A stretch of DNA of 62,103 nt, the filler included, from Dehalococcoidia bacterium (GTDB taxonomy: Bacteria > Chloroflexota > Dehalococcoidia > DSTF01 > RBG-16-68-14), in assembly GCA_040882355.1 (NCBI GenBank). It is 3 parts of 3 records of this genome, joined end to end, with 100 filler letters (N's around TTAATTAATTAA, not from the genome) between each part and the next. Parts side by side here need not be neighbours in the genome. Positions count along the whole stretch, not along the records: positions 1 to 26,707 come from JBBEBM010000038.1; 2 more parts are not named here. One strand, written 5' to 3'. Both the position numbers and the translations under genes were made by a program. Below, in pieces: positions 174 through 25,088 of this stretch (positions are counted from its first letter, which is position 1; every line of letters starts with the position of its first letter). Under the pieces are notes generated by a model, which made no database searches, had not been told where the DNA came from, and worked only from the letters and a program-made list of their open reading frames with translations.

Positions 174-557
174 AACGTGAATCACCTCCTCGTGTCGAAT
201 CCAGCACACCGGCGCTGAGTGCCGCATGCCCTCGCGGTATTGTCGAGTGTGAGGATACGGGCGCGGCGGGAGAGCGCGAAGAGGCGGGTGGCGCGGGGTG
301 GCCGCGCGCGCGTCCACTGGGCGTCGCGAGTACGCCCCCGCGTCCTCGATCTATCCGCAGTCGGAGCAACTCCTGCCTCGACGACAGACTTGCTCGGCGC
401 CGCTCGAACTGCTGCTATGCCGACATAGTGTAGCGCCTCGGCACGCTCTCCAACGTCACGCCTGCCTGGTATACTGAGACCCCGCAGTCGGCGGCCCAAA
501 CTGCCGGCGGGGATCATAACGAACCCTGGCTCTCTCTCAGGCCAGACGGGGGGCGTG

Positions 558-3500
558 ATGCCGATCGATGCGACAGACGGCCCGGGCAGTACCAGGGCAG
601 GCGCGCCCGTTGAGCCCAAGACGTTCGCCTCCGGACGATTCGTCGTGAAGCGCCTCCTGGGTGAGGGCGGACAGAAGACCGTCTATCTAGCTCGCGATAC
701 GCAGTTGAACCGCAACGTCGCCATCGGCTCCATCAAGACCCACGGTCTGGACGAGGCGGGCATCGCCCGCGTGCGCCGCGAGGCGCAGACCCTGGCCGGG
801 CTCGGCGCGCAGCCGCACATCGTCACGATGTACGACATCGGGCAGGAGCAAGGGCCCGACGGGCGGCCGGTTCCCTACCTCGTGTGCGAGTACGTCGCGG
901 GCGGCGATCTGGAGCGCGAGCTGCGCCAGGCGGGCGGGCCGCTGCCGCTGGAGCGGGTGCTGGCCATCGGCCAGGACCTGTGCCGGGCGCTCGAAGTTGC
1001 CCATGGCCGGGGCATCCTGCATCGCGACATCAAGCCGGGGAACGTCTGGCTGACACAGGAGGGCCACGCCAAGCTGGGCGACTTCGGGCTGGCGGTAGCG
1101 CTGGGCCAGTCCCGCCTGACAGAGGCGGGCAGCGTCATGGGGACGGCGTCGTACATGCCGCCGGAGCAGGCGCTGGGGACGGAGGTGGACGTTCGCGGCG
1201 ACCTCTACGCGCTCGGCTGCGTGCTGTACGAGCTGGTCACCGGGCGGCCGCCGTTCCTTGGCGACGACGCTCTCGCCGTCATCTCGCAGCACGTCAACAC
1301 CGCGCCGGTCGCGGCCTCGTGGCACCGGGCGGACCTGCCGCGCGCGCTGGACGCGCTGATCGAGCGCCTGCTGGAGAAGGCGCCGGAGGAGCGCCCCAAG
1401 AGCGCCACCGCCGTCCTCGCTGAGCTGCAGCGGGTCGGAGCGGGGGGAGTGCACACCGCCGCCGAAACCGCGCCGGCGGAACCGCGTCGTGATCTGGCGG
1501 GCGTCGAATGGGGACGGTTCGTCGGACGGCGCGAAGAGATGGACGGGCTCAAGGACGCGCTGCAGGACGCGCTGTCAGGCAACGGCTCGCTGGCGATGCT
1601 CGTCGGCGAGCCGGGCATCGGCAAGACGCGGCTCGCGGAGGAGTTTGGCGTCTACGCCGGGCTGCGCGGGGCGCAGGTGCTCTCGGGCCGCGGCTATGAA
1701 GGTGAGTCGTCGCTGCCCTACACGCCGTTCATCGAGGCGCTGCGCCAGTACACGCGCTCGCGCCCGGACGCTGAGCTCCGCACGCAGATCGGTCCCGGCG
1801 CGCCGGAGATCGCCACCCTCGTCTCCGAGATTCGCGCGCGCTTCCCCGACATCGAGGAGGCGCCGAAGCTTGACGGGGAGGCGGAGCGGCTGCGGCTCTT
1901 TGAGAGCGTGACGCAGTTCCTGCACAACGCGGCGACCGCCAACCCGGTCGTCCTGTTCGTCGACGACCTGCACTGGGCGGATAAGCCGTCGCTGCTGCTC
2001 CTGCAGCACCTGGCGCAGCGGACCGCGCGCGACAGGCTCCTCATCCTCGGCGCCTATCGCGATGTCGAGCTGGACCGCACGCACCCGCTGGCCGACGCGC
2101 TCGGGGCGCTGCGCCGCCTCCCGAACTACCGGCGCGTGCTGCTGCGCGGCCTGCTGCAGGAGTCGGTCATCGACCTGCTCACGGCGATCGACCCCAGCGA
2201 AGAAGGCGCGGCGGGACGGCAGGCGTTGGCGGCGGCGCTCCACCAGGAGACGGAGGGCAACCCCTTCTTCATCCGCGAGGTAATGGCTCACCTGATCGAG
2301 ACGGGAAAGATCGTCCACGAGAACGGCCGGTGGGTCGGGCAGGTGACCAGCATCTCGGAGCTGGGCATCCCCGAAGGCGTACGGGAGGTCGTCGGTCGGC
2401 GGCTCTCGCGCCTGAGCGAGGGCTGCAACCGCATGCTCACGCTGGCCTCGACGATGGCCGGCGGTTTCTCGTGGGACGCGCTGAAGGCGATCTGCGCCGA
2501 CGTGCCGGAGGCCGAGCTGCTCGATCTCCTCGAAGAGGCGCTGCGGGCGCAGCTCATCGCCGAGCGGCGGGGTGAAGGCGGCACGTACGACTTCACGCAC
2601 GCGCTGATCCGCCAGACGCTCTACGACGAGCTGAGCACGCCGCGGCGCGTGCTGCTGCACCGCCAGATCGGCGAGGCGCTGGAGAGCCTCTACGCGTCGA
2701 ACGTCGAGCCGCACCTGGGCGAGCTGGCGCACCACTTCTATCAGGCCGCCCCCGGCGGCGACGTGGAGAAGGCGCTCGATTACGCGAAGCGCGCGGGCGA
2801 CCGCGCGATGGCGCAGGTCGCCTGGGAGGCCGCGGCGGCGCACTACGAACGCGCGCTCGAGGCGATGGACCTGATCCCGGCCCCCGACGAGCAGGTCCGC
2901 GTGGACGTCCTGCTTGCCATGGGGCGCGCGCTCGAGATGGGCGGTGCGGACCGCTCAACCCGGCGGCCGGTCTTCCAGCTCGCGGCAGAGCTCGCGAACG
3001 GCGCCGGCGACTACGATCGATACGCCAGGGCGGCACTCGGGTTCGCCAGCCTGCTTACAACCCCCGGTGCGCTCGATGCCGAGGTGGTGCGAATGCTGGA
3101 AGAGGCCCTGCAGGTGCTTGGCCCGGCCGAGAGCGCCCTACGGGCGATGGTGCTCGCGCGGCTGGGTAACGAGCTGTCCTTCTCGGAGCAGCGCGAACGG
3201 AAGAGGCAGCTCTTGGCAGACGCGCTGCAGGTGGCGCGCCGCGTCGACGACCCGGAGACGCTCGCATACGTCCTGGCATGCGTAGTGTGGGAAGACATGG
3301 ATCTTGCTCAAGCGCTTAGCCTGGCGCGAGAACAGGTCGAGGCAGCGAGCCGCAGCGGAGACAAGTTTGCGGAACTCCGCGCACATAACGTGCTGGCCAC
3401 CCACATCCTCGCTCTGGGCGATCGGGCCGGCTTCGACCGGGCCGTCGAGGAGGAGGACCGGCTCCAGCGCGAGCTCCGAATCGTCGACGGGTGGACGGGC

Positions 3501-4847
3501 TTCCATCACGCGCTGCAGGCGCGGATGGACGGGCGGTTCGAAGAGGCTGAAGGTCTGGCGGGCCAGGCCTTTGCGGAATTGCAGCGCGAAGATCCCGAGA
3601 ACGCCGCGATGGCCATTGGGACCGTCATATCTATGCTCCGCCGGCTGCAGGGCCGGCTGCTGGAGATCGAGCCGGCGTACAAGGCCAACGCCGAGCGATA
3701 CCCGGCGATCCCGGCGTACCGCGCCGCGCTCGCCTCAATCTACAGTGAGGCAGGTCGACGGGAAGATGCGCGCTCGGCCTTCGACGAACTCGCCGAACGG
3801 GGCTTCGGCCACCTCCCCCCCGACGCCCTCTTGCCCATCACCCTGATCAACCTGGCAGACGCCTGCTGGTCACTCGGCGACGCCGCCCGCGCGCCCGAGC
3901 TCTACCGGATGCTGTTGCCCCGTGAGGGAGAGGTCGTGACAATCGGTTGGGCCAACACGTCGGCGGGCGCCGTGTCCCGCAGTCTTGGGGTCCTGGCCGC
4001 GACGATGCGCCGCTGGCAGGACGCGGAACGCCACTTCGAGGACGCCCTTCGCACGACGGCGCAGCTCGGCGACAAGCCCTGGCTGGCCCAGACGCGCGCC
4101 CAGTACGCCGCGGTGCTCCTCGCGCGCGGCGCCCCCGGCGACCGCGAGCGCGCGCTGGCGCTCCTGCAACTGGCGCTCGACGCGGCGCAGGAGATGGGGA
4201 TGAAGAAGGTCATCGAGGACTGCCTGGCGCTCAAGCTGCAGCTCCAGGGGGTGGACGTGTCCGATATGCACGGCTCCATTGGCGCCGTCGTGTCGTCCGT
4301 TGGCGTGGAGCGCCCCGACGTAAGCACGTATGCCGCCCCGGACGGCACCGTCACCATTGTGTTCACCGACATCGAAGGCTCCACCGCGCTCGCCGAACGT
4401 GTCGGCGACCAGCGCTGGATGGAGCTTCTCCGCCCGCACAACGATCTCATCGTCCGAGAAGTCCGCGGCCATGACGGTTCCGTCGTGAAATCGATCGGCG
4501 ATGGATTCATGCTCGCGTTCAGGAGTCCGCAGAACGCGCTGCGATGCACCGTCGCGGTACAGCGCGCCCTCGCTCCGAGCAATGACGGCGCGAATGACGA
4601 GGCCATCCGAGTGCGAATCGGCATCCATGCCGGAGAAGCAATCCGTGAAGCGGACGACTTCTACGGGCGAACCGTGACGCTGGCGGCGCGCATCGCGAAC
4701 GAAGCGCACGGCGGACAAATCCTGGTATCGCCGGCGATCCGGGATGCCCTAGCTGGAACGAATGAGTTTTCGTTCGGCGACGAGCGAGAGGTGGAGCTGA
4801 AAGGCTTCGCCCTGTCGCAACAGGTCATCGAGTTGCGATGGACATGA
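558..4847 (+). CDS. Ser/Thr kinase + STAND-type ATPase + TPR-like region + class III adenylate/guanylate cyclase
   Basis: LGEGG, HRDIKPGN, DFG, GTASYMPPE; Walker A GEPGIGKT, Walker B FVDDLHWAD, EGNPFF; cyclase FTDIEGST, KSIGDGFM, DFYGRTVTLAARI. Confidence 0.93.
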   Translation: MPIDATDGPGSTRAGAPVEPKTFASGRFVVKRLLGEGGQKTVYLARDTQLNRNVAIGSIKTHGLDEAGIARVRREAQTLAGLGAQPHIVTMYDIGQEQGPDGRPVPYLVCEYVAGGDLERELRQAGGPLPLERVLAIGQDLCRALEVAHGRGILHRDIKPGNVWLTQEGHAKLGDFGLAVALGQSRLTEAGSVMGTASYMPPEQALGTEVDVRGDLYALGCVLYELVTGRPPFLGDDALAVISQHVNTAPVAASWHRADLPRALDALIERLLEKAPEERPKSATAVLAELQRVGAGGVHTAAETAPAEPRRDLAGVEWGRFVGRREEMDGLKDALQDALSGNGSLAMLVGEPGIGKTRLAEEFGVYAGLRGAQVLSGRGYEGESSLPYTPFIEALRQYTRSRPDAELRTQIGPGAPEIATLVSEIRARFPDIEEAPKLDGEAERLRLFESVTQFLHNAATANPVVLFVDDLHWADKPSLLLLQHLAQRTARDRLLILGAYRDVELDRTHPLADALGALRRLPNYRRVLLRGLLQESVIDLLTAIDPSEEGAAGRQALAAALHQETEGNPFFIREVMAHLIETGKIVHENGRWVGQVTSISELGIPEGVREVVGRRLSRLSEGCNRMLTLASTMAGGFSWDALKAICADVPEAELLDLLEEALRAQLIAERRGEGGTYDFTHALIRQTLYDELSTPRRVLLHRQIGEALESLYASNVEPHLGELAHHFYQAAPGGDVEKALDYAKRAGDRAMAQVAWEAAAAHYERALEAMDLIPAPDEQVRVDVLLAMGRALEMGGADRSTRRPVFQLAAELANGAGDYDRYARAALGFASLLTTPGALDAEVVRMLEEALQVLGPAESALRAMVLARLGNELSFSEQRERKRQLLADALQVARRVDDPETLAYVLACVVWEDMDLAQALSLAREQVEAASRSGDKFAELRAHNVLATHILALGDRAGFDRAVEEEDRLQRELRIVDGWTGFHHALQARMDGRFEEAEGLAGQAFAELQREDPENAAMAIGTVISMLRRLQGRLLEIEPAYKANAERYPAIPAYRAALASIYSEAGRREDARSAFDELAERGFGHLPPDALLPITLINLADACWSLGDAARAPELYRMLLPREGEVVTIGWANTSAGAVSRSLGVLAATMRRWQDAERHFEDALRTTAQLGDKPWLAQTRAQYAAVLLARGAPGDRERALALLQLALDAAQEMGMKKVIEDCLALKLQLQGVDVSDMHGSIGAVVSSVGVERPDVSTYAAPDGTVTIVFTDIEGSTALAERVGDQRWMELLRPHNDLIVREVRGHDGSVVKSIGDGFMLAFRSPQNALRCTVAVQRALAPSNDGANDEAIRVRIGIHAGEAIREADDFYGRTVTLAARIANEAHGGQILVSPAIRDALAGTNEFSFGDEREVELKGFALSQQVIELRWT

Positions 4848-4892: not shown

Positions 4893-7286
4893 TCAGCCGC
4901 CGCGCTTTCGTGACACCAGCCAGGCGGTCAGCGACGTGAATACGCCCGCCATCACCGCCAGCGCCAGCCAGCGCAAGAGCAGGTCGCTCCCCCCGAATCC
5001 ACCCACATCCGCCTGATACGGGATCTTCGCCGAGATCTTCATCGCTTCCACCGACCAGTGCGTGACGGTGAGGTACGAGAGCCACTGCCCCACCGTGCCG
5101 GTGCCCGGCCCGCCGATGAAGATGAGCTGCGGGATGAGGACGATGGGCACCAGGCTCTGCGCTCTGTCCGCGCTGGTTACGGAAGCTGAAATGACGAGGC
5201 CCAGCCCGAGCGCGGCGAGCGCGGCGAGGTTCAGGCTGATCCAGATCTCGAGCGGCGCCGGCATCAGGGCGCCCGACGAAGGCAAGTCGACTTTCAGCCA
5301 GACGACGCCGAGCAAGACTGACGTCTGGAGCACGCAGAGCACGGCCAGGACCAGGAGCTTTGATGCCAAGTATGGGAGCACACGCAGGCCCGCTAGCCGT
5401 TCGCGCAGCAGGATCGGCAGCTCCTTCACGATCTCGCGCGCGGCGTTGATCGCCCCGAACCAGGTGGCCGTAGCAGCGAGCATAATCGGGAGCGCCGCGG
5501 CCAGCTTGGCGGCAGGGATGCCGAACGCCTCGGCTTGAGCGATGGCCGCCGGAGGGGGCGGCTGAAAGTCGGTGGTCTTGGCGACGAGCGTCAGGAACAG
5601 GGCGAGAACCGGCGCCTGGGCCAGCAAGATCACGAGGTTTCGACGGTCGCGCAGCATCGTTTCAACGTAGCGGGTTGCGGCGATGCGGAACTGTCGCCAG
5701 GCGGAGATACCCTGCCGAGTGCTTCCCGTGATGAACCCGAAGGGGTCCCAGTGAGTGGCAGCCTCCTCCTGCGCGACCGACACTTCCGGCGCGCCAGCGC
5801 CGCGGGAGAAGCGCGACGCCTTGAACTTCTCTTGCCACGCAACAGGATCGTCTGCCTCCACCCTTGGATAGATTTCGGCGAGATCGCTGACGCCAAAGAA
5901 CTGCAACGCCTCCGCCGGCGTGCCGGCAAAGGCCACGCGCCCGCCAGTCGCCAAGAAGACCAGCCTGTCCGCTGCCCAGAGGCTTTCGACATCGTGCGAG
6001 ATGACGATCACGGTGCTGCCCGCTTGGGCCAGGTCTTTCGTGATGGCGGTGACGCGCCGGGTCAGGCCGGGGTCTAGGCCGGAGGTCGGCTCGTCCAGAA
6101 AGAAGAGGCCGGGCCGCGAGATCAGCTCGGCAGCGATACTCGCGCGCTTCTGCTGACCACCGCTCAAGCGCCCGATCTCCACATCGCGCCGCTGATGGAT
6201 CTCCAGCTCCCGCATCACCTCATCGACGCGTTGATCGGCGTCCTCCCTGCTGACATCCGGGGGCAGCCGCAGGCGAGCTACGTAGTGCAGGGCCCGTCGA
6301 ACGGTGAGTTGCATCGGCAAGATGGTGGCCTGTGGAACGTAGCCGATGAGGGGGCGCAACGCGTCGTAGGCCCGGTAGAGATCCGCTCCGTTTACGATCA
6401 CGCGACCGGACGTGGCGGGCCGCATGCCAATCAGCGCATCCAGCAACGTGGACTTGCCGGCGCCACTGGTACCGGCGATCGCCACAAGCTCACCGGGGCG
6501 AACGCTAAAGCCGATGTGGTCGAGGATCGTCTTCCCGGAAATGACTTTGGTGATATCGTGAACATCGAGCCTGACGGCCCGGCTATCGTCGTAGTGTTCG
6601 ATCGCGCCATCGTTGTAGATGAGCTTGTACGGCCCGATGCGTACGATATCGCCGGGCTCCAGCGCGCGCTCGGCGCCGTACGCGCCGTTGACGTACGTCC
6701 CGTTCGCGCTGCCGAGATCCGACAGGAGAACGCGGCCGTTCGCGATTTCGAGTTTCGCGTGCGCACGAGACACGCTGAGGCTGGGGAGGATGATATCGTT
6801 TCCCGGCGAGCGGCCGATGGAGATGGAGCCGCCTGCCGGCAGCTTCAGCCTTTCGACGCTGACCCGCCCAGGCGATTCGTCCTTCTTGAACGCACGGGTA
6901 CCCTCTAGCGAAGCGCGCAGGTCGGCTGCGCCGAGGTCAAAGATGAGCTGAACCTCGTCCTGAGTACCGGGTGCGATGAGGAGACAGTCGCGATGTTGCA
7001 ACATATGGTCGTCGACGGGCACTCCGCGAAGCAGGGTGGGGTTGGTGCTGCCGACTTGAATAAAGCGATAGGTACGGCCTTCCCGGACAAGCCGGGCCTG
7101 AAACGCAGAGACGACGCTGGAGTCGATGCGGATATCGTTGCGCCCATCCCTTCCGACCGAGATATCGTCGTGCTCAAGGGAGAACAGCTCCTCTTCGCCG
7201 TGAGCTATGAGAACGCGGAGGACTGCGCTACCCATGCCGGCGACGTTCGAACTGCTCACTGCTTCACTCTCCCCGACCTGGTCCAC
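4893..7286 (-). CDS. FHA-FHA ABC transporter, ATPase/permease fusion (Rv1747-like architecture)
   Basis: Two FHA motifs (VGR..VSAFQA..STNPT; IGR..VSRAHA..SANGT), GTSGAGKS, LSGGQ, LDEPT, C-terminal transmembrane segments; start uncertain. Confidence 0.92.
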   Translation of the reverse strand: MDQVGESEAVSSSNVAGMGSAVLRVLIAHGEEELFSLEHDDISVGRDGRNDIRIDSSVVSAFQARLVREGRTYRFIQVGSTNPTLLRGVPVDDHMLQHRDCLLIAPGTQDEVQLIFDLGAADLRASLEGTRAFKKDESPGRVSVERLKLPAGGSISIGRSPGNDIILPSLSVSRAHAKLEIANGRVLLSDLGSANGTYVNGAYGAERALEPGDIVRIGPYKLIYNDGAIEHYDDSRAVRLDVHDITKVISGKTILDHIGFSVRPGELVAIAGTSGAGKSTLLDALIGMRPATSGRVIVNGADLYRAYDALRPLIGYVPQATILPMQLTVRRALHYVARLRLPPDVSREDADQRVDEVMRELEIHQRRDVEIGRLSGGQQKRASIAAELISRPGLFFLDEPTSGLDPGLTRRVTAITKDLAQAGSTVIVISHDVESLWAADRLVFLATGGRVAFAGTPAEALQFFGVSDLAEIYPRVEADDPVAWQEKFKASRFSRGAGAPEVSVAQEEAATHWDPFGFITGSTRQGISAWRQFRIAATRYVETMLRDRRNLVILLAQAPVLALFLTLVAKTTDFQPPPPAAIAQAEAFGIPAAKLAAALPIMLAATATWFGAINAAREIVKELPILLRERLAGLRVLPYLASKLLVLAVLCVLQTSVLLGVVWLKVDLPSSGALMPAPLEIWISLNLAALAALGLGLVISASVTSADRAQSLVPIVLIPQLIFIGGPGTGTVGQWLSYLTVTHWSVEAMKISAKIPYQADVGGFGGSDLLLRWLALAVMAGVFTSLTAWLVSRKRGG

Positions 7287-7459
7287 TTCAGTGCACGCAA
7301 GGGCCGTATTCTACCGCATTCTGCGACTTCGCCACGTGAAGGATAGACATGCGGTGACGGAGGATCGGCCCGGCGGCGGAAGCGCTGCTCGCCGAGGGCG
7401 GCGCGGGCGCGGTCCTGCGCTACTAACGTCCGACCTAGGCTGCCCTTCCGGACGCGGTT

Positions 7460-7548
7460 CGCTACGATGGGGATGGACGACCCTCAGGTCGCTGCGAGGC
7501 GACCCTAGCCCGCAAGGAGCCCGGACGGTGCACAGCTCCGGTAGCCGC
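7460..7548 (+). repeat. Degenerate copy of the acnA promoter/leader/first codons (partner 12142-12233)
   Basis: Colinear blocks CGCTACGAT, GGACG, AGGTCG..GCGAGGCGACCCTAG, CGCAAGGAGCCC, ACAGCT.CGG.AGCCGC. Confidence 0.85.
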
Positions 7549-7680
7549 CCCATACGAACCTGATCGAGCGCAGCTTCAGACTGGCGGGGCCGGAGGGAAA
7601 CGTATACCCCCCGATTATGGGCCGTTAGGAGCAAGACGCCCCCTGGCGCTATACTAGGTCTCAGGTTCGCGGAGGACGCC

Positions 7681-9507
7681 TTGTTCATTGAGAGGGTGCA
7701 GGTCGACGAAGGCTTCTTGGACAAGCTTGACTTGCATTTCGTTCCCGGCTTGAACGTGATTATCGGGGCCCGAGGATCAGGGAAGACGTCTCTGATCGAG
7801 CTCATGCGCTTCTGCATGGGACTTAGGCCCTTCGCCGAGGGCCCGCAGAAGAAGTTCCGCGAAATCGCATTGGCGGCGCTTGGGACGGGACAAGTACAGG
7901 TCACGTTTGGGCCGTCAAGTGAAGGCGTCGCAGTAACACGGACAGCTGACGAAGCAGAACCAAGGTCGACCGGCCGGGTTCCTGCCGTACTCGTCCTAGG
8001 TCAGGGGGAGATTGAATCTGTTGGCCTCGATGCTGCCGGCCGACTGCGCCTGATCGACCTATTTCGCAAGCCCAGGGGCATCTCACACGAACACGCAGCC
8101 GAAGTCGCGAACCTTCGCTCCCTGACCGTCGAAATCCAGGACCTCTCGGCAGAGCTGGCAAAAATCGACCAAGACATGTCGGAACTAGGCAACGTTACTG
8201 ATGAGCTAAGCGAAGCCGAGGCACACCAGGCGGGAATGCTCGAGTCCGTTGCTGCGACGGCGGAGGAACAAACCCGGATGCGTCAGCTCCAGGAATCCAT
8301 TGCCCAGCTCTCTGTGCGAGAGGCCGCATTCACGAGATGGTCAGCGAAACTACGCGGGCTCCAGGAACGCCTAGCGGACACCCACAGATCCATCCCTAGC
8401 ATCGATGAGTGGCCAGACGCCGCTGGTCCAGAAGACCTCCTCGCGAACGCACGATTGACACTCTCTGCGATATTCGAGGGTCTAAACGTGGTCATATCAT
8501 TGGCTGGTCGCCTCGAAGCGGATCTCAAGGCCCTTACCACAGATAATGCGACCCGTCGCATAACTCTTGACGACGAAGCGCGTCAAATACGCAGTAAGCT
8601 CAACCAGCTTCAGGAAGGTGCTGGAGCCATAGCCCGCACCATTCAAACGCTTCGCGAGCGCCTCGGTCAGTTATCAGCGCTGACCGACCTCAGAAGCCAG
8701 AAGGTTGATCGCCAACATGCAGTGCTTCAGGAAAGATCGGCGATCCTCGAACGCGTTGAGGAGGACCGGCAGCTCCGATATGAGGGGCGTCTCGATGTGG
8801 CCAATCATCTCAACGAACAACTCGGCCCACGAATCCGGGTTGATGTGCGCAAGTCCGAGCTTGACGCAGATTACACGACAGCGATTACGGCGAGCCTGAG
8901 AGGCAGCGGCCTTCACTACAGTTCTCTAGCACCCCGCCTCGCCGAGCGCCTCAGTCCCAGGGAGCTGGTCACGTCAGTGGAGGCACGGGATGCAGAATTC
9001 ATTGCCTCAACGGCCGAGATTCCCATCGACCGGGCTCACAGGGCAATCGCATTCTTGACAGAGCACACAGACGACCTAGTTACCGCCGATATAGAAGATG
9101 GGATTGACCTGAGGCTCCTCGATGGGACGGAGTATAAGTCTGACCTGTCGACTGGGCAGCGTTGTACGGTCATATTGCCTATCATTCTAGCCAATCATGG
9201 GAATATCCTCCTTGTCGATCAGCCAGAGGATAACCTGGACAATGCGTTCGTCGTTGACACGTTGATACGAGCAATCCTGGCTCGCAGCACTGATCAACTA
9301 ATCTTCGTGACGCACAACGCAAATATTCCTGTTCTCGGGGCGGCGGACCAGGTCATTGTCCTCGAATCTGATGGTAGTCGTGCGTACGCCAAACATGTGG
9401 GTCCCCTGGACGAACCTTCCACAGTCGATGCAATCACCTCCCTTATGGAAGGCGGCTTGGAAGCGTTTAGGATGCGAGCCGAATTCTACCGCCGTTTCAG
9501 AGACTGA
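7681..9507 (+). CDS. SMC/Rad50-like coiled-coil ABC ATPase
   Basis: GARGSGKT, Q-loop GQGEIE, long coiled coil, LSTGQR, LLVDQPEDNLD, VTHNANIPV; TTG start with GGAGG; TATACT at 7650-7655. Confidence 0.92.
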   Translation: MFIERVQVDEGFLDKLDLHFVPGLNVIIGARGSGKTSLIELMRFCMGLRPFAEGPQKKFREIALAALGTGQVQVTFGPSSEGVAVTRTADEAEPRSTGRVPAVLVLGQGEIESVGLDAAGRLRLIDLFRKPRGISHEHAAEVANLRSLTVEIQDLSAELAKIDQDMSELGNVTDELSEAEAHQAGMLESVAATAEEQTRMRQLQESIAQLSVREAAFTRWSAKLRGLQERLADTHRSIPSIDEWPDAAGPEDLLANARLTLSAIFEGLNVVISLAGRLEADLKALTTDNATRRITLDDEARQIRSKLNQLQEGAGAIARTIQTLRERLGQLSALTDLRSQKVDRQHAVLQERSAILERVEEDRQLRYEGRLDVANHLNEQLGPRIRVDVRKSELDADYTTAITASLRGSGLHYSSLAPRLAERLSPRELVTSVEARDAEFIASTAEIPIDRAHRAIAFLTEHTDDLVTADIEDGIDLRLLDGTEYKSDLSTGQRCTVILPIILANHGNILLVDQPEDNLDNAFVVDTLIRAILARSTDQLIFVTHNANIPVLGAADQVIVLESDGSRAYAKHVGPLDEPSTVDAITSLMEGGLEAFRMRAEFYRRFRD

Positions 9508-9508
9508 C

Positions 9509-10411
9509 GTGGACGAGGAAGCCGCGCTCGCGCTCCTTACGTCCCCAAAGGCCCATGAACGCCTTGCCGCTGCACGATACTTGGCCCGGTGCGCATCGTC
9601 AAAAAGTTACAACGCTATCTCCAATGCGAGACAAACAGAGTCCGATCGATGGGTCAGGGCATCTCTGGGTCGAGCAATCGATCGGCTAGCGTCCTCAATC
9701 GCTCAGCGTAGCATAGAACTAGTCTCTGACGACGAAGACGAGGACAGCTCCCTCGCGATAGAACTACGGTCACAGGCCGTGCAGGATGTGACAAATCTCC
9801 TTTTGCACGAGGCTACGCCCATCATCGGTGCCCTTCGCCAACGAGCCACAACGGAGGTCCCGAATTTCGCCGCCAGCCAAACGGCCAGCGCGCTTCACCG
9901 GCTCGATACATTTCTGGACGCTGTAGACGGCCTCAATCGCGCGGCGAGCCCCGCACGACGTAATGAGTTCGACCTTGCGGCTTTGTTGCGCGACATCTCT
10001 GACGAAGATGAACTTCTAGGACACATCGAGACCGAGCTGACCGGCACGACACCTCTCATCGTTATCGGCGACACTGCTCTAGTCAGACTTATAGTTTCCA
10101 ACGGACTCAGAAACGCTATCGAAGCCACCGAAGCTGTACCCACCGGTGAGAAGGAACCCGTGCTCATCAACTGGGGCGATACAGATCGCGACACCTGGAT
10201 TAGCATCCTCGACAGAGGCATTGGCCTCCCCCCTGCTCACGACAGAGTCTTCGAGATAGGATTGACAACGAAGTCTAAGGATCGCCATCTTGGAATGGGG
10301 CTGGCTCTCGCAAGACAAGCCGCCGACTCGCTGGGTGGTAGTCTGACTCTCCGCCCTAGGGATGACGCTGGCGTCGCATTCGAGCTTCGCTGGCCGCACA
10401 CACCGTCATGA
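9509..10411 (+). CDS. Cytoplasmic histidine kinase with N-terminal HEAT-like repeat
   Basis: H-box LLLHEATP, N-box SNGLRNAIEA, G1 DRGIG, VFEIGLTTK, G2 GMGLAL; GTG 1 nt after ATPase stop; no transmembrane segment. Confidence 0.88.
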   Translation: MDEEAALALLTSPKAHERLAAARYLARCASSKSYNAISNARQTESDRWVRASLGRAIDRLASSIAQRSIELVSDDEDEDSSLAIELRSQAVQDVTNLLLHEATPIIGALRQRATTEVPNFAASQTASALHRLDTFLDAVDGLNRAASPARRNEFDLAALLRDISDEDELLGHIETELTGTTPLIVIGDTALVRLIVSNGLRNAIEATEAVPTGEKEPVLINWGDTDRDTWISILDRGIGLPPAHDRVFEIGLTTKSKDRHLGMGLALARQAADSLGGSLTLRPRDDAGVAFELRWPHTPS

Positions 10412-11826
10412 TGCGCGTACTACTTGTCGAAGACGAGGAATCGGAGATCGGCTTTGTTACAGACCAATTCAGAGAGGCTGGCCTCGACGTTAGTGTCGTC
10501 GCTGCCAAATCGAAGATGTCTGCGCTCTCGACGCTCCAAGACGATGAGTTCGACGCGTTCATCTTTGACCTGCGCATCCCAACGCAGGACGGGGCGCTGG
10601 ACAAGCAGGAAGCCCATGGCCTTTCCGTCATTGAGTCGGCCCGCCTATCGTTTCCGGGGACGCCTTTCTGCATACTGACCGGCAAGGGCACACCCGAACT
10701 CATAGGCGAAGCTCTGTCCAATGCCCCAACGCGAGACCTTTTCGGATCAGGAGAGCGTCCCTTGTCCAAATTTTGTAACAAGGTCAACTATGCCCCATGC
10801 ATCGAATGGCTTGCTGAGATTTGCGGCCAAGATAATATCTTGAAGGAAATCGAAATTGTCGGCACGGTCGATGGCCTATCAGTCCAGAGCAAGCGTGCTC
10901 TTCGAATCTTTGCTCGACGGCGTGCGGGTACTATCCTCCGAGTTTCGCCACTTGGAGGTGGTCTCTCGTCAGCCAGCACAATGCGCGCCCAAGTTTACGA
11001 TAAAGATGATGGCATTACAGCCACGGTTGTTGTCAAACTTGCTCCGCTTGATCGGATCGAAGACGAACGACTGCGTTATGAGACACTCATTACGCGTCTA
11101 GCGTCCGGGGCGTTTGCTCACTATGTTGATAACGTCGTCGCCGGCTGTGGCCGCACAGGAGGACTGTTCTATCGCCTCGCCGAAGATTACGTTAGCCTCT
11201 TCGACGCCCTACAAGCCGCTCCCATGTCGGGCGCATCAATAGTCCAACGGCTTAGGGATCTTCAGGAACCGTGGCGTCGAGACAAGTCATCTCACGCAGT
11301 TCAAATCGGCGCCCTTCGCCGGTCATTTATGGCTGACAGTGAGTTCGACGAGCATCAGCCTGCCCTCCCGGGCGTCGTGCTCAAGGATGTGGAGGCGAAA
11401 ACGATCCAGGTTCGCGAGTTCTGCCAGCATGGCGACCTTCACGGGGAGAACGTTCTCATAGACTCGCACTCACAGCCCCTACTAATTGACTATGGTGACG
11501 TCCGAATGGCGACGGCTTCCCTGGATCCAGTCACTCTAGAGCTCAGCCTTGCATTTCACCCAGAGGGGAGGGCAGTTAGCGGTGGGTGGCCAAGCACTGA
11601 TGCGGCCAGCCGCTGGGCAGAGCTCGACGAGTACACTCGCGACTGCCCGTTTGCGGACTTCGTCAATGCCTGCCGCGAATGGGCCCTGGACGATTCATTG
11701 AGTCAGTATGCCGTTTATGCGAATGCCTACGGATACGCGGTTCGTCAGCTCCGCTTCCAGGACGTTGATCCCAATCTCGCCCTGGCCGTAGCTGGCTCGG
11801 CCTGTACCAAGCTCCTAAGCAGTTAG
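10408..11826 (+). CDS. Response regulator: receiver domain fused to APH/protein-kinase-like domain
   Basis: VLLVEDE, IFDLRIP, ILTG; LGGGLS, VVVKL, HGDLHGENVLID, IDYG; ATGA overlap with kinase gene. Confidence 0.88.
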   Translation: MMRVLLVEDEESEIGFVTDQFREAGLDVSVVAAKSKMSALSTLQDDEFDAFIFDLRIPTQDGALDKQEAHGLSVIESARLSFPGTPFCILTGKGTPELIGEALSNAPTRDLFGSGERPLSKFCNKVNYAPCIEWLAEICGQDNILKEIEIVGTVDGLSVQSKRALRIFARRRAGTILRVSPLGGGLSSASTMRAQVYDKDDGITATVVVKLAPLDRIEDERLRYETLITRLASGAFAHYVDNVVAGCGRTGGLFYRLAEDYVSLFDALQAAPMSGASIVQRLRDLQEPWRRDKSSHAVQIGALRRSFMADSEFDEHQPALPGVVLKDVEAKTIQVREFCQHGDLHGENVLIDSHSQPLLIDYGDVRMATASLDPVTLELSLAFHPEGRAVSGGWPSTDAASRWAELDEYTRDCPFADFVNACREWALDDSLSQYAVYANAYGYAVRQLRFQDVDPNLALAVAGSACTKLLSS

Positions 11827-12206
11827 CGGCGAGTAGGCGGTTGAGGCGGCGATCGACACCGACGCGCTTGTCGAGGACGTACGCGGCCCGGCGCCCTCAG
11901 CGCCTCTCAAGCTCACCGTCCGCGACGCGCTGGGGATCAGAGCTACGGCCACCCTCGCCCTCTACGCGCCGCCAAGCGCGGCGGCGCCCACGCAGGCGGG
12001 CGAGGGACGGTGAGGGGCGGCGCAAAAGAGCATCGGCGTAGACAAAGAAGACGCGTTTTTGCGAAACAAATCCCTGCCCGCCTCGGGGCGCCGCCGGCCA
12101 GCGCCGGGCGCCGCTTCGAGCCGCGCCCCGAGCACGTCATCCGCTACGATAGAGGCGGACGGTCCTGAGGTCGTCGCGAGGCGACCCTAGCGCAAGGAGC
12201 CCCGCC

Positions 12207-15005
<2,799 letters not shown>

Positions 15006-20336: not shown

Positions 20337-20411
20337 TGGAGCGGGGGAAGGGACTCGAACCCTCGACAGCCTGCTTGGAAGGCAGGAGCTCTACCACTGA
20401 GCTACCCCCGC
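20337..20411 (-). tRNA. tRNA-Gly (TCC)
   Basis: GCGGGGG/CCCCCGC acceptor stem, TAGCTCAGTGGTAGAGC, CCTGC-CTTCCAA-GCAGG, GGTTCGAGTCC, encoded CCA. Confidence 0.97.
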
Positions 20412-20527
20412 TCGATATTAGCTTCCGCCAGAGGCGATAACTGGACGGCGCTTGACGCACAGCGCTCCGACAGACGATAATTGTGCCGCCTGGCAAGACG
20501 GTTCAATACCGAGAGAGGGATCGGCCC

Positions 20528-21490
20528 ATGCGTCAAGCAGCATCACGTACCAGTGAACCACTGGCGGCTAGCGGTGTCAACGTCGAGGACGCCATCGCGA
20601 GCTTCGCCCGCTACCTGAAGGCGGCGAACCGCTCGCCCAAGACCGTAGACACCTACACCGAGAGCACCCGACAGCTCGCGGCGTTCCTGCGCGAGCACGG
20701 GATGCCGACCGACGTGGTGCTCCTGCGCCGCGAGCACATCGAGACGTTCGTCCTCGACCTCCTGGAGCGCCGGAAGCCCGCGACCGCGAACAACCGCTAT
20801 CGCGGCGTCCAAGCCTTCTTCAAGTTCCTGCTGGAGGACGGCGAGATCGCGGAGTCGCCGATGGCGAGGATGACCCCACCGACGGTGCCGGACGAGCCAC
20901 CCCCGGTCCTCCGCGCCGAGGAGGTGCGGGCATTGCTGGCGACCTGCGAGCGCGGGCGGACGTTCGAGGAGCGGCGCGACTTTGCGATCCTGCTGACGCT
21001 CTACGACACCGGCGGGCGGCGCGCCGAGGTCGCCCGGCTGCGGCTGCACGCCGAGGACAAGACGGACGGCGACGTCGACCTGGAGCGGGGCGTCCTCTAC
21101 GTAGTCGGGAAGGGACGGCGCCCGCGGCCGGTCAAGATCGGCGCCAAGGCCGTCCGCGCCATCGACCGTTACCTGCGCCTGCGCAACCGGCACCCGAGCG
21201 CTGGCCTACCCTGGCTCTGGGTCGGCTCGAAGGGCTGTTTCAGCGACTCCGGCATCGCTCAGATGGTGCGGCGGCGCGGGCACGAGGCTGGCCTGGGCGA
21301 CAACATCCACCCGCACCTGCTGCGCCACAGCTTCGCTCACGAGTTCTTGAGTAACGGCGGTCAAGAGACGGATCTGATGCAGCTCGCGGGCTGGCGCTCC
21401 CGCACGATGGTCAGCCGCTACGCGCGCAGCACGGCAACGGAGCGCGCCCTGGAGGCTCACCAGCGGCTGAGCCCTGGAGATGCGCTGTGA
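20528..21490 (+). CDS. Tyrosine recombinase/integrase
   Basis: [25 protein letters not shown] (W for second His), SRYA. Confidence 0.95.
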
Positions 21491-22014
21491 CCCTGCCGGC
21501 CGCGGCAGGAGATGCCGAGGGCTACGTACGTTGCTCACATTGCCGAAAGCGGCTGACCATCATCGTTGACTTGCAGGGCCCCAGTCCGGCGGTGTACCTC
21601 GCCGGACGATACTGGACGACGGCCACCACCTCACGCGAGGCGGACGACACGCGTTTGCACGTCTGGCAGCACGGGAGGACCCGTCGGTGGCGCGATCGCG
21701 CTGGCCTGGAGACCGGTGTCGGGTGGCTTGCATCGCTACCGGCGATCATCGTCTGTGACAACGCCGCGTGTCGCCACCCAAGCATCCTAACCGGCAGGCA
21801 GCTCCGGGTTCGCTCGGCGTCGCCGCTCCACTACAGCACCTGCGCAGAGCTGGGGTGCTCCATGACCGTCTACCGACCCGCCGCATTCTGTCACGAACAC
21901 GGCGGTGGCCAGCGAAAGGCGATCCGTCGGTTGCCAGGTGTGAAGCATCGGCTGACAGGCCATGACCGAGAGCGACTCGCCGCCCTGCGTTTGACGGGTA
22001 GTGGGCCAGTGTAG
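21487..22014 (+). CDS. Hypothetical Cys-rich protein
   Basis: GTGA overlap with integrase; CSHC, CDNAAC, CAELGC, FCHEH clusters. Confidence 0.5.
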
Positions 22015-22156
22015 AATTGATCAGGCAAGAGCTCAGTTGACATGCCGCGTTGGGTGGGGTTACTCTTGAAGCGATGCCAACTCAGCGCAGGGAGCGCGCA
22101 GGCTGGTGGTTTAAGAACTCGGCAACCCCGCCGATGATAGCGACAGAGGCGTTCCA

Positions 22157-22468
22157 ATGGTAGCCATGCCGATGCCCGCGCCGGTGCTCCGAAAGAGAGC
22201 ACGGAGATTCTTCACCTCGGATGCGACGCCACCCGAGCTAGAGTGGGTTGCGAATCTCAGCCCCCTCCATTTCCGGCTGTTTGTGGTAGAATTGCATGAA
22301 GCGCTCTCTAACTCCCTAATTCGCAAGGGCAATGGCGAGCGGCTGCGCGAGGTGATCGAGGACTGGCAGGCGACAGCAGAGATCGACGCCGATCCCGATC
22401 TGGCCAAGAAGCTGAGGACGCCGCGCAGCGAGAAGTCCTACCGTGAGTGGAACCCCCCAGGCGACTAA
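22157..22468 (+). CDS. Putative antitoxin
   Basis: Overlaps downstream RelE-like gene; VIEDWQATAEIDADPDL; TTGACA-18-TACTCT at 22037-22066. Confidence 0.7.
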   Translation: MVAMPMPAPVLRKRARRFFTSDATPPELEWVANLSPLHFRLFVVELHEALSNSLIRKGNGERLREVIEDWQATAEIDADPDLAKKLRTPRSEKSYREWNPPGD

Positions 22469-22763
22469 GCCCGCGTACAAGGTGCAGATCGAGGATGAGG
22501 CCTGGGAAGGCCTCTCTTCTTTACCCGAAAGTCAGCAGGACAAGGTATTCGCTGTCAACAAGAATCACCTTCAGCACCATCCCACGCAGCCGATCCCCGG
22601 CAAGCTGAAGCGCCTCAAGGGAGAGTACAGCGCCTACTTTCAGTTCGAAATTACAGACTCGCAGCGAATGATCTACACGGTCGATGAGGAGACTAAGACG
22701 GTCTACGTCGAGTACATCGGCAGGCATCCCGAATGGAAACGGCGGCGGAGCCGTGCCTACTAG
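22443..22763 (+). CDS. RelE/ParE-superfamily toxin
   Basis: YKVQI, KRLKG, QRMIYTVDE..VYVEYIGRH. Confidence 0.82.
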   Translation: MSGTPQATKPAYKVQIEDEAWEGLSSLPESQQDKVFAVNKNHLQHHPTQPIPGKLKRLKGEYSAYFQFEITDSQRMIYTVDEETKTVYVEYIGRHPEWKRRRSRAY

Positions 22764-22924
22764 GTTGACGATCCGGCCCCAGTTACCGCTTGACGTGAGC
22801 GCTGTGCCTCGGCTATCATTCGGCAAGTCAAGATAGAACTCAAGACCGGATAGAGCGGTCCTTTCCGCCACCGCAGCGCCCCAGGAGCGGCGCCCCGGAA
22901 GGCTCAGGGAAGGGCCGTTTTCTG

Positions 22925-23209
22925 ATGGGCACCCCGGCTTCAGAGGTCTCGCTGCGCGGCCGACTAGGCGCCTACTCGCTCCACGCCACCCACGATCCCC
23001 GAGAGACGACCGCGAAGGCGCGGGCGACCTTCCTCGACCGCTTCATCGACCAAGTTGACCCTGGCCGGGTGTTGCCGGAACACGAACGCCTGCGCCGGGC
23101 GGAAAGCGCTCGAAAGGCGTACTTCACACGGCTCGCGCTCCGTAGCGCCCAGGCTCGCCGACGACGAAGCAGGAACAGCAAGACACCCAGAGCGCCACGC
23201 GATGAGTGA
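22925..23209 (+). CDS. Small basic hypothetical protein of mobile-element type
   Basis: VDPGRVLPEHERLRRAESARKAYFTRLALRS; overlaps primase start. Confidence 0.75.
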   Translation: MGTPASEVSLRGRLGAYSLHATHDPRETTAKARATFLDRFIDQVDPGRVLPEHERLRRAESARKAYFTRLALRSAQARRRRSRNSKTPRAPRDE

Positions 23210-25088
23210 GATCGCGGCCCGGCAGGTGGCTCCGGGTGCGCTCCGAACCGCCTGTGAGGGCTACGCTGGGCGAGGCTGGGTTCCGTTGGCGCTGAGAGCC
23301 GACGCGAAGGGCAAGCCGAAGGCCCCGATCGTGACCGGCTGGCAGACGATGAGCCTCGACACCTGGGAAGCGCAGCCGTGGGAGCGGGCGCTAGGCGTAG
23401 GTCTCCTGCTTGGCCCAGCGTCGGGCAACCTGGGGATCATCGATGTGGACGACGTCGGCCTCGCCGACGCTGCGCTTGCCCTCTTTCTGCGACGGCATCG
23501 CCCAGCTAGGTTCGTGAGAACCGGGAGCAACCGCGGCCACATCTATGTGATCGAGAATCAGCCAACGGCCCACAAGCGGAAGGTCCTAGCAGCGTTCGAC
23601 GGCCGGCCTGTCAAGGTCGACCTTCTGGTGCAAGGCGCTCAGGCGGTCGCACCGCCGACCGCTGGCTATGGGCTGGAGGGCTATGAGGAGACGCTTGACG
23701 CCGATCCCTTGCCCGTGCCGAACATCGAGGCAGCATGGCAGAGCCTCGCCCGAGACCTGAACATCAGGGAGATCGAAGCGCGGCAGCGAGGCACCAACGC
23801 GAACGCGCCGCCGCTTGGCGAGCGCATCATCGAGGGCGCTCGCAATGATACCCTGGCGAGCCTGGCAGGTTCGATGAGGCGACGCGGCGCTACCCGGCGC
23901 GAGATCCTGGCTGCGCTCACAGTAATGAACGAGCGTTGCGAGCCGCCCCTCTCCGAGCGGGAGTTGGAGGCAATCGCCCGCAGCGTCGGGCGCTACGCGC
24001 CCGAAGACTATTCGTTTCCTGTTCTACCTATAGGATCGGAGAAGGAAAAGAAACAGACCGCGCCTCTGACTTTGCCCTGGCGGACGGCCCGCGAGCTGGC
24101 GCAGACGCAACCAGAAGAACCCGCATGGATCGCGCCTCCCTACCTGGTGCGGGGCGAGATCACCGGCCTCGCTGGCAAGCTCAAGGTCGGAAAGTCTACG
24201 CTCACGGCGCACCTCATGCGCGGCGTTCTCACTGGCGGCACCTTCCTGGGCCAGTCGTGCGAGCAGGGCGCTGTCCTACTGCTCACCGAACAGCGGCCCG
24301 GGTCGTTGCGCGAGTTGCTGGCACGGTCCGACCTGACTGACTGTGACGACCTCCACGTACTCCACCTGACCGACGCTAGAGGGGCAGCCTGGCCGGAGGT
24401 GGTACGCGTCGCCATCGAGAAAGCGCAACAAGTAGGCGCCAATCTGCTGGTGGTGGATACCGTCTCGCGTTGGGCCGGGCTAGTAGAGGAGAACGACGCC
24501 GGAGCCTTCAATGCGGCGATGGTCCCGCTCGAGGATGCGGCAGCGGCTGGCCTCGGCGTCTGGGTTCCTCACCACGAGAGGAAGAGCGGCGGTGCGATCG
24601 AGGACGCTGGTCGCGGCAGTTCAGCCTTCGGCGGCGCGGTCGACATCCTCCTGCGACTCCGCCGCGGCGAAGGCAACACCCCCCGAACCGTCCGAATCGT
24701 CGAGGCCCTGAGCCGCTTCGACGCCACGCCGGAGCAGCTGGCCATCGAGTTGACCCCAGACGGCTACCTGGTGCGCGGCACGGAGACCGACATCAAGGTT
24801 CAGCAGGCGAGAGACGCGCTTGACGGCGTTCTCACGGCAGAACCCTCCTCGCTCGACGACCTCAAGGCGCTGCTGGGCGATGGCCACAAGGACAAGGCGT
24901 TACGCAACGCGCTCGACCAGATGGTGCGAGACAACGTGGCTCACCAGAGTGGCGGGGGCGTCAAGGGTGACCCCTTCAAATGGGCAGTGCTTTCTTTTCC
25001 TACTCCGATCTTAGGAGTAGAGAAGGAAAAGAAACCGCTGACGGCCCCGAACGCCCCTCCCGGTAGGGATGGCCCGGAGCCTGGCTGA
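23202..25088 (+). CDS. Bifunctional primase-polymerase + PriCT + RecA-like (AAA_25) helicase
   Basis: GIIDVD, RTGSNRGHIY, VAPPT, EGARNDTLASLAG, CEPPL, GKLKVGKS, LLVVDT, HHERK, GRGSSAF. Confidence 0.9.
   Translation: MSEIAARQVAPGALRTACEGYAGRGWVPLALRADAKGKPKAPIVTGWQTMSLDTWEAQPWERALGVGLLLGPASGNLGIIDVDDVGLADAALALFLRRHRPARFVRTGSNRGHIYVIENQPTAHKRKVLAAFDGRPVKVDLLVQGAQAVAPPTAGYGLEGYEETLDADPLPVPNIEAAWQSLARDLNIREIEARQRGTNANAPPLGERIIEGARNDTLASLAGSMRRRGATRREILAALTVMNERCEPPLSERELEAIARSVGRYAPEDYSFPVLPIGSEKEKKQTAPLTLPWRTARELAQTQPEEPAWIAPPYLVRGEITGLAGKLKVGKSTLTAHLMRGVLTGGTFLGQSCEQGAVLLLTEQRPGSLRELLARSDLTDCDDLHVLHLTDARGAAWPEVVRVAIEKAQQVGANLLVVDTVSRWAGLVEENDAGAFNAAMVPLEDAAAAGLGVWVPHHERKSGGAIEDAGRGSSAFGGAVDILLRLRRGEGNTPRTVRIVEALSRFDATPEQLAIELTPDGYLVRGTETDIKVQQARDALDGVLTAEPSSLDDLKALLGDGHKDKALRNALDQMVRDNVAHQSGGGVKGDPFKWAVLSFPTPILGVEKEKKPLTAPNAPPGRDGPEPG

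Follow-up and report, generated by a model that had tools for sequence, protein, structure and literature searches.

What might a bacterium do with three tightly coupled genes that encode, in order, a coiled-coil ATPase, a histidine kinase (HK) and a receiver domain fused to a kinase of a quite different type? Such a cassette lies at 7681-11826 in the window, by which we mean the whole stretch of DNA that was analysed: 62,103 nucleotides (nt) of a Dehalococcoidia bacterium (Chloroflexota; assembly GCA_040882355.1), with the cassette in the part taken from record JBBEBM010000038.1. A preliminary description, made from the sequence alone, had proposed that the trio is a new defence operon, in which the ATPase senses infection, signals through a HEAT-like domain of the HK to a His-Asp relay, and so switches on a toxic kinase. 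We find that the trio is inherited as a unit across many phyla and that a sister clade of its ATPase-HK pair stands upstream of immune-type genes. The cassette is, we think with some confidence, a candidate anti-phage system, in which an infection-sensing ATPase would act through a His-Asp relay on a kinase effector that stops the growth of the phage or of the cell.

The three genes and the features given within them are all on the plus strand. The ATPase gene (7681-9507) encodes 608 amino acids (aa) from a TTG start with GGAGGA just upstream. Its TGA stop (9505-9507) is separated by 1 nt from the HK gene (9509-10411; 300 aa, GTG start), and the latter shares an ATGA overlap with the receiver-kinase gene (10408-11826; 472 aa). 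The predicted starts of all three are where the alignments of their homologues begin. The trio thus described spans 4.2 kb as three intact, coupled open reading frames (ORFs), and its GC content is 0.56-0.60 over 7501-11500 versus 0.66-0.72 on either flank, so that a low-GC island of 56% stands out from ~70%. The tight junctions and the lower GC content of the preliminary description are confirmed, as are its intact motifs, which are conserved in 38 ATPases, 38 HKs and 26 receiver-kinases.

The proposal had been staked in part on the three genes occurring together elsewhere, and they do. A receiver-kinase profile found 581 cluster representatives at E values up to 1e-30 among 1.84 billion proteins, and nearly all of the best 150 of these are full length (~470 aa). 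In a survey that took one genome per species, 45 loci held a substantial receiver-kinase relative, and at 39 of them the complete trio was present in the same order and on the same strand. The six exceptions are two contig ends (L021, L030), a remnant beside LysR genes (L023) and three lone receiver-kinases (L001, L004, L031), in whose genomes this ATPase query found no ATPase. Two of the 39 trios (L014, L040) are fragmented into several ORF pieces each, as if the cassette were decaying in certain lineages. When metagenomes were scanned with the ATPase profile, at least 573 relatives came up among 596 candidate stretches, and the best 80 were examined. In the closer clade, the HK and the receiver-kinase are both present at every locus whose sequence continues far enough; four loci end too early to show them.

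Hosts of the trio fall, by record title, into at least eight phyla. The titles include Chloroflexota, Acidobacteriota, Actinomycetota, Pseudomonadota (alpha, beta and gamma), a campylobacter family, Spirochaetia, Latescibacterota and an obscuribacter family, which we take to be a cyanobacteria-related lineage. Junctions are tight (-30 to +10 nt) in 35 of 36 cases between ATPase and HK and likewise in 35 of 36 between HK and regulator, a 4-nt overlap being the commonest arrangement. Pairwise divergences of the three proteins correlate over 37 loci (r = 0.89, 0.82 and 0.82; maximum 0.23 in 300 label shuffles), which shows co-inheritance only and not interaction. No fourth gene, whether permease, nuclease or other, is conserved beside the trio, and no flank family is common to more than three of the 39 loci; the ATPase accordingly lacks a permease or nuclease partner, as first described. 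The trio is a conserved, co-inherited unit.

Judged by its sequence, gene 1 is an SMC/Rad50-like ABC ATPase of the TrlF/Ppl/Spaf_1101 family without the N-terminal PHP domain. Its residues 4-604 match positions 291-944 of the 944 in the TrlF profile NF045780 (240.7 bits, E 4.9e-71), a score below the curated cut-off of 350. Other NCBIfam matches are to Spaf_1101 (115.7 bits) and Ppl (96.3 bits), and the best PADLOC match is the Ppl model (83.7 bits). The likeness to PHP-associated ATPases, at first noticed from two short motifs, is therefore real. Since the NF045780 match begins at position 291, the PHP part is absent and the protein corresponds to the core of the PHP-ABC family only; Pfam gave no match to a PHP domain. 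We considered and rejected a 5′-truncated TrlF gene, since all 37 of 37 relatives are equally short (605-620 aa) and have the same start residues.

The ATPase motifs are intact and strongly conserved. In the Walker A loop (7765-7788; residues 29-36), G29, R31, G32, G34 and K35 are invariant among 38 sequences, as is Q108 of the Q-loop. The C-terminal half of the head (9142-9333) contains the signature (residues 488-493), the Walker B/D-loop DQPEDNLD (513-520) and the H-loop THNANIPV (544-551), with S490, G492, Q493, D513-D517, D520, H545, N546, N548 and P550 invariant in the same set. An AlphaFold2 (AF2) model with a predicted local distance difference test (pLDDT) score of 88.2 has an ABC head plus a coiled coil of two antiparallel helices (134-237 and 255-381; ~100 residues per arm), and its top Foldseek neighbours are JetC, Rad50, Smc, MukB, RecN and LmuB. 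By sequence the PDB holds no close solved relative, the best match being ~34 bits. A CxxC zinc-hook motif was not evident at the coiled-coil tip (residues 238-254) when the sequence was inspected by eye, with no dedicated test. No membrane segment was found (highest 19-residue Kyte-Doolittle mean, 1.55). A reading as an ABC transporter was rejected since no permease lies alongside.

The HK scores 53 bits for HATPase_c in Pfam and a sub-threshold 14.4 bits for HEAT_2, with no match to TPR. Two HEAT-like repeats (~residues 1-65) are followed by an acidic linker, a dimerization and histidine phosphotransfer (DHp) helix with H100, and the catalytic ATP-binding domain (187-298). The predicted phospho-accepting His of the H-box (H-E), H100 (codon 9806-9808), is invariant among 38 sequences, at least 90% of which also have E101; N202, G262 and G264 are also invariant, and D235, G237 and G239 reach at least 90%. 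No membrane segment was found (highest 19-residue mean, 1.46), and a search of PADLOC 2.0.0 at E values up to 0.1 returned no family. The kinase had been described as soluble with a HEAT-like N-terminus; that description is upheld by these results and by its homology to the sister-clade HEAT kinases described below.

The third protein begins with a receiver domain (residues 1-128; 10408-10791), which scores 28.8 bits for Response_reg (cut-off 30.2) and is structurally close to solved receivers (VIA Z 17.3, e.g. 8vc9_A, root-mean-square deviation 2.3 over 127 residues). Among 26 sequences K125 is invariant and E8, D9 and D54 are found in at least 90%, D54 (10567-10569) being the predicted phospho-acceptor. 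The pair of proteins has the classical two-component features, namely the H-box, N, G1 and G2 boxes of the HK and the acidic pocket, Asp and Lys of the receiver. Directly after the phospho-acceptor Asp there is an insertion (residues 55-72; 10570-10623) that ordinary receivers do not show, within which L55, P58 and G71 never vary and at least 90% of the sequences have D65 and H70; it may make a contact to the kinase domain or form a second metal site.

The remainder of the protein is a TCAD9/APH-like kinase domain (~residues 175-472; 10930-11826), with 60.8 bits for TCAD9 (PF19974; cut-off 40) and 26.4 bits for APH in Pfam. The catalytic loop HGDLHGEN lies at 11428-11451 (residues 341-348), and the catalytic residues K210, E220, H341, D343 and N348, together with the metal-binding D361, are invariant in 26 sequences. 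In the AF2 model (pLDDT 93.2, predicted template modelling score 0.87), Foldseek and VIA find likenesses of the kinase part to maltokinase, APH(3'), APH(4), choline kinase, N-acetylhexosamine kinase and amicoumacin kinase, and VIA gives residues 159-472 a Z of 15.4 to 3csv (a putative APH) and 15.2 to the lanthipeptide kinase LxmK. The output is APH/protein-kinase-like, as had been noted, on both the profile scores and these fold matches. The modelled fold alone makes no decision between a small-molecule and a protein substrate, and since its closest folds are small-molecule and peptide kinases, the toxic protein kinase of the preliminary description keeps its kinase domain while becoming only one option among others. 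The protein has no membrane segment (highest 19-residue mean, 1.04). Its PADLOC 2.0.0 matches are to the receiver domain only, apart from one weak match of the kinase part (MkoA, E 0.017), and all 60 of the PDB sequence matches listed (the best 60 of 157) lie within the receiver domain.

These same folds raise the question of an inducible antibiotic or xenobiotic kinase, whose APH-like domain would inactivate a toxin while the ATPase-HK pair senses the drug or its damage. The APH(3'), APH(4), amicoumacin kinase and 3csv likenesses and the Pfam APH score would suit such a function, and when the C-terminal half of the ATPase is compared by sequence with the PDB, an ABC-F resistance factor scores best, at a weak 34 bits. 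The ATPase is, however, of the single-head, coiled-coil SMC/Rad50 type and not a tandem ABC-F, and three plasmid loci that we inspected show no resistance-gene context. The same sensor pair would also drive TIR, CBASS and SIR2 loci in the sister clade, and the kinase's Pfam family carries a name tied, in the accessible part of one paper (PMC10910872), to vWA-MoxR-VMAP conflict systems. We regard drug resistance as a very improbable function for the cassette.

The strongest contextual evidence for a role of the ATPase-HEAT-kinase pair in immunity is the predicted wiring of a sister clade of the pair, found among the 80 best metagenome loci. Its ATPases are monophyletic (28 of 103 tips, support 1.0) with 29-33% identity. 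The next gene is common to 19 loci and the following gene to 17. The former encodes a HEAT plus HATPase_c kinase (HEAT_2 26.7 to 35 bits, cut-off 27.7), and these kinases align with the HK of the window, HEAT part included, with an hhalign probability of 99.8% (E 9.9e-28, 280 columns). The latter encodes a receiver fused to a sigma-54 AAA+ domain (L113, L123, L126), to a helix-turn-helix (HTH; L122, L133, L137) or to an unassigned domain of ~150-230 residues.

Downstream genes were counted at the 16 sister-clade loci (within L104-L142) with at least ~1.2 kb beyond the regulator. At 10 of the 16, same-strand immune-type genes lie directly downstream of it. TIR-type genes are found at five: three TIR genes at L113, TIR with caspase at L119, DUF1883-TIR at L122, two TIR genes at L128 and one at L139. 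The others have AAA, bacterial HORMA and SMODS genes (CBASS; L112), SIR2-STALD (L135), E2/E1 (L141), PD-(D/E)XK (L120), and RNase_T with HNH (L132). Example spans are L113:3-5583, L112:1117-8033 and L135:4923-11734. The remaining six loci have nothing recognisable or opposite-strand genes. The sister-clade trio may be an infection-inducible transcription switch for immune operons.

Is the cassette mobile? In the window it forms an island. The right boundary (12142-12233, plus strand) is the native leader and 5′ end of an aconitase gene (ORF 12207-15005), and the left boundary (7460-7548, plus strand) repeats in the same orientation, though in decayed form, the aconitase leader, its ribosome-binding site and its first few codons; from here GC content drops rightwards. 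A repeat search gave a direct repeat (7460-7509 and 12142-12191) with 82% identity, and pairwise alignment prolongs the likeness across the AAGGAG site and ~10 aconitase codons, so the left copy is a decayed duplicate of the aconitase 5′ end, making the island ~4.7 kb long. There is no integrase inside it, and its plus strand has only three ORFs of at least 150 aa. Directly upstream of AAGGAG, a G+C-rich hairpin (7488-7506 and 12170-12188) is kept in both leader copies despite their 18% divergence. To the left lies an FHA-ABC transporter gene (4893-7286, minus strand) and to the right the aconitase gene itself; a 118-aa ORF upstream of the trio (7207-7563) has no family match.

The window stretch is present in four DNA runs of one sediment study, and no RNA run is listed with it. 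Three of these runs have assembly contigs that break at 7366-7395 and one has a break at 12516-12533; single contigs join 7392 to 12527 (with a side of 21 letters) and 7401 to 12335 (with 6 letters between). Such contigs might represent a co-existing island-less form, but with sides this short, in a gene as widely conserved as aconitase, the support is too thin to conclude so.

Elsewhere, relatives are found on 49 plasmid records. At the three plasmid loci inspected the neighbours are insertion sequence (IS) elements, a DUF6088/AbiEii pair, a gene for a SMEK-domain protein and relaxase genes, and RefSeq names the trio proteins 'AAA family ATPase', 'sensor histidine kinase' or 'ATP-binding protein', and 'response regulator'. 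Two IMG/VR contigs carry the trio and both are prophages. One (L143) has the cassette inserted between its O/P-like replication genes and NinB/RusA/Q; in the other (L144) it adjoins tail fibre, Cor, UmuD/polymerase and transposase genes. Such prophage regions carry accessory genes, often defence genes. No receiver-kinase relative was found in a phage genome collection. Some copies of the trio belong to hosts closely related to laboratory strains, among them those of a lambdoid prophage (L143) and of Erwinia (e.g. Erwinia sp., L044), Pseudomonas (e.g. Pseudomonas tehranensis, L016) and Vibrio replicons. The cassette is horizontally mobile, as its low-GC island with a duplicated leader, its plasmids and its prophages all show.

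Mobility of this kind could also be that of a selfish addiction or exclusion module serving its carrier element, for example by stabilising the plasmid or prophage or by killing cells that lose it. Carriage by plasmids and prophages, often between IS elements, and a three-gene island in the window without its own integrase are what such a module would lead one to expect, and the idea overlaps with defence, since defence genes are common among prophage morons. However, the trio has no conserved fourth gene and no small antitoxin-like partner, and known addiction modules are much simpler than a sensor ATPase coupled to a phosphorelay; we consider addiction quite improbable.

If the trio were defensive, defence genes might be expected near it. 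We compared 354 flanking ORFs (at least 150 aa, within ~6 kb) of the 39 trio loci with PADLOC, with 15 unrelated loci of the same scan, which gave 91 ORFs, as the control. Generic matches were excluded on both sides (Ser/Thr kinases, ABC 'mad3', RecD-like, DEDDh, TnsBC, and DpdF/DpdJ-like helicases). Within ~6 kb, 12 of the 39 trio loci have a clear known defence gene, or 10 without lone methylases: AbiEi (L002), HmaC with PDC-M45C (L010), Drt8 (L012), BrxABC (L013), MTase_II (L014 and L017), a Type I S subunit with methylases (L018), NsnAB (L025), type IV restriction (L029), SoFic (L032), AbiJ (L037), and AbiE with DrmD (L038). Among the 15 control loci there is one clear case (Lamassu, L049) and three are ambiguous. 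The trend is suggestive and in the expected direction, and the enrichment is not established. At the Lamassu control locus (L049:12275-15790), a TCAD9/APH-like kinase without a receiver lies ~2.6 kb from a complete Lamassu operon (LmuA, LmuB, LmuC).

The proposed mechanism would run as follows. The SMC/Rad50-like ABC ATPase would be the sensor, recognising an infection cue in an ATP-dependent manner; the cue would most probably be a phage protein or DNA that is foreign or damaged. It would act with the cytoplasmic HK, whose sole extra part is the short HEAT-like module, and the HK would autophosphorylate on H100. The phosphoryl group would pass from H100 to D54 of the receiver, and the phosphorylated receiver would free the fused APH/TCAD9-type kinase to phosphorylate a small molecule or protein, so that phage growth stops or the cell arrests. 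The link to immunity made in the preliminary description is upheld as far as the sister clade is wired to TIR, CBASS and SIR2 genes, and we infer the cue that is sensed, the role of the HEAT module in coupling ATPase to HK, and both the target and the toxicity of the kinase.

Complex modelling lends weak support to binding between the ATPase and the HK. Their co-fold scored 0.56 against 0.00 for the best of three controls, runs agreed in at least 77% of contacts, and partner pLDDT was at least 71. The mark used was reached by 58 of 80 solved complexes and by 2 of 110 mismatched pairs, counts that are rough here with our own alignments used, and scores up to 0.60 were those of only seven of the 80 solved complexes and of both mismatches. 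The ATPase-HEAT complex first envisaged thus has weak support, at the level of the two proteins. Since the co-fold gave no interface, the HEAT part as docking site is something that we infer, because HEAT is the kinase's only extra module and is kept in both clades.

Several observations weigh against the immune interpretation. The co-fold score just given falls in a range in which most passes are wrong, except for pairings that were already likely. The excess of defence neighbours, expected by the preliminary description and found in direction, is not significant (12/39 versus 1/15, one-sided Fisher p = 0.06, with a small control), and when ambiguous matches are counted on both sides it becomes 14/39 versus 4/15 (p = 0.38); 27 of the 39 trio loci have no clear recognised defence neighbour. 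The window neighbours are housekeeping genes (aconitase, ABC transporters, MgtE), and the three lone receiver-kinases adjoin metabolic or unassigned genes. The kinase fold, being nearest to small-molecule kinases that include antibiotic kinases, suits non-immune roles too. Since the sister-clade outputs are ordinary transcription factors, the role of the sensor pair could be a general regulatory one, for which certain islands have recruited it.

Most of these points would suit a non-immune module for stress or DNA status, in which the ATPase reports DNA damage or topology, of chromosome or plasmid, and the relay tunes metabolism through a small-molecule kinase, the immune link of the sister clade being a secondary recruitment. 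Housekeeping surroundings, the many loci without defence neighbours and the transcription-factor outputs fit it, and in the accessible part of its description (PMC7554251) the Photorhabdus TrlF locus is characterised by temperature-dependent growth arrest and not by phage resistance. A stress module does not readily account for a patchy, cross-phylum spread without conserved neighbours, for carriage in a low-GC island, on plasmids and in accessory regions of prophages, or for the 10 of 16 sister-clade loci that stand directly upstream of dedicated immune effectors. We consider it unlikely, and retain as our preferred reading an anti-phage cassette.

A broader proposal joins the two clades: the PHP-less ATPase and the HEAT-HK would together be a widespread and hitherto unrecognised infection-sensing front end, which turns recognition of the Rad50/SMC type into a His-Asp phosphorelay. 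It would be coupled here to an APH-type kinase effector acting on a small molecule or nucleotide, a chemistry new among immune effectors, and in the sister clade to a dedicated, infection-inducible transcription switch (sigma-54 activators, HTH regulators) for TIR, CBASS, SIR2 and ubiquitin-like modules. We put this forward tentatively, and are more inclined to doubt it than to rely on it. If the cassette does defend against phages, SMC/Rad50-like sensor ATPases can signal by a classical phosphorelay and not only by a fused or bound nuclease, and an APH-type kinase joins the immune effectors. The sister clade would then provide a candidate explanation for the infection-specific activation of certain TIR, CBASS and SIR2 operons. 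With its soluble products and a length of only 4.2 kb, the system is directly testable.

Two other features of the window were seen. A separate small integrative-element candidate lies 8.6 kb to the right (20337-25088), with a minus-strand tRNA-Gly(tcc) and, after it, genes for a tyrosine integrase (20483-21490) and a primase/helicase-like protein with PriCT_1 and AAA_25 domains (23055-25088). At 555-4847 a giant soluble protein of 1430 aa combines a Ser/Thr kinase, an AAA_16 STAND-like NTPase, TPR and an adenylate/guanylate cyclase.

How does the trio compare with known systems? Its ATPase core is homologous over its full length to Ppl (NF042955; 'anti-phage protein Ppl' in NCBIfam, a name that counts in favour of an immune role), TrlF (NF045780) and Spaf_1101 (NF045781), with which it shares the coiled coil and the conserved C-terminal helix as well as the Walker B (DQPED) and H-loop (THNAN) motifs. 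Unlike these proteins it is missing the ~290-residue N-terminal PHP domain, and its output would be by a His-Asp relay and not by a fused phosphoesterase. The TrlF-containing TRL operon of Photorhabdus gives conditional growth arrest, and its mutations mapped to TrlG, not TrlF, in the accessible part of that report (PMC7554251). Unlike that operon, the trio has no TrlG helicase or TrlR regulator partner at the 39 loci.

An ABC head with a long antiparallel coiled coil is shared with Lamassu LmuB, Wadjet JetC and the non-immune Rad50, which are among the top structural neighbours. The trio differs from all three in having no LmuA/LmuC, JetABD or Mre11 partners, and its matches to the LmuB models are weak, at most 41.2 bits; in fold it resembles SMC-like ATPases at large. 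Membership in Lamassu or Wadjet was rejected, given that the partner genes are absent.

The kinase resembles TCAD9 kinases in its above-cut-off Pfam score and its intact catalytic residues. The TCAD9 (PF19974) name is expanded, in the accessible part of one paper (PMC10910872), by association with vWA-MoxR-VMAP ternary conflict systems, and the label also appears in the methods passage available of a 2026 preprint. According to the accessible parts of Kaur et al. 2020 (PMC7159879), active APH-like kinases and receivers occur rarely among the effectors of vWA systems, where the authors say that they came across no histidine kinase; 'TCAD' is absent from its main text and from the supplements examined. 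Unlike those systems, the trio has no vWA, MoxR or VMAP genes in the window flanks or conserved at the 39 loci, and its kinase is fused to a receiver and paired with an HK.

The preliminary description had known of no characterised system with this layout. Within PADLOC 2.0.0, NCBIfam and Pfam the trio matches no named system, and no description of an ABC ATPase, HK and receiver-kinase layout was found in the literature reached, which did not cover the ABC ATPase classification of Krishnan et al. 2020. The layout keeps that standing in the resources searched; the relay principle was already known from two systems.

The first of these is Ambrosia (AbrR, AbrA-D; bioRxiv 10.1101/2025.09.30.679545), in which, according to the accessible part of the preprint, a kinase and a receiver fused to a winged HTH (wHTH) belong to a validated defence operon. 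Its receiver-wHTH, a proposed switch for immune enzymes, resembles the sister clade described here. Ambrosia differs from the trio in its transcriptional output and in its partners, a methylase, an HNH nuclease and an XRE regulator, and the part of the preprint available describes no SMC-like ATPase and no HEAT-like kinase in it.

The second is Detocs (DtcA/DtcB/DtcC; Rousset et al., 10.1101/2023.01.24.525353), a defensive two-component relay with an enzyme-fused receiver. As set out in the accessible part of that preprint, it shares with the trio a three-gene operon and a cytoplasmic HK acting on a receiver in which an enzyme replaces the DNA-binding output, and its effector part is modular. 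Detocs places TPR-repeat sensing on the DtcA kinase, has a stand-alone buffer receiver (DtcB) and mostly uses a PNP ATP-nucleosidase as effector. Unlike Detocs, the trio has an HK with two HEAT-like repeats, a separate SMC-like ATPase, no buffer receiver and an effector of the APH/TCAD9 type, which is not among the Detocs effectors named in that part (PNP, REase, TOPRIM and TM hydrolase). Since Detocs and Ambrosia show that His-Asp relays can be defensive, the principle is already known and the layout described here is a variation on it.

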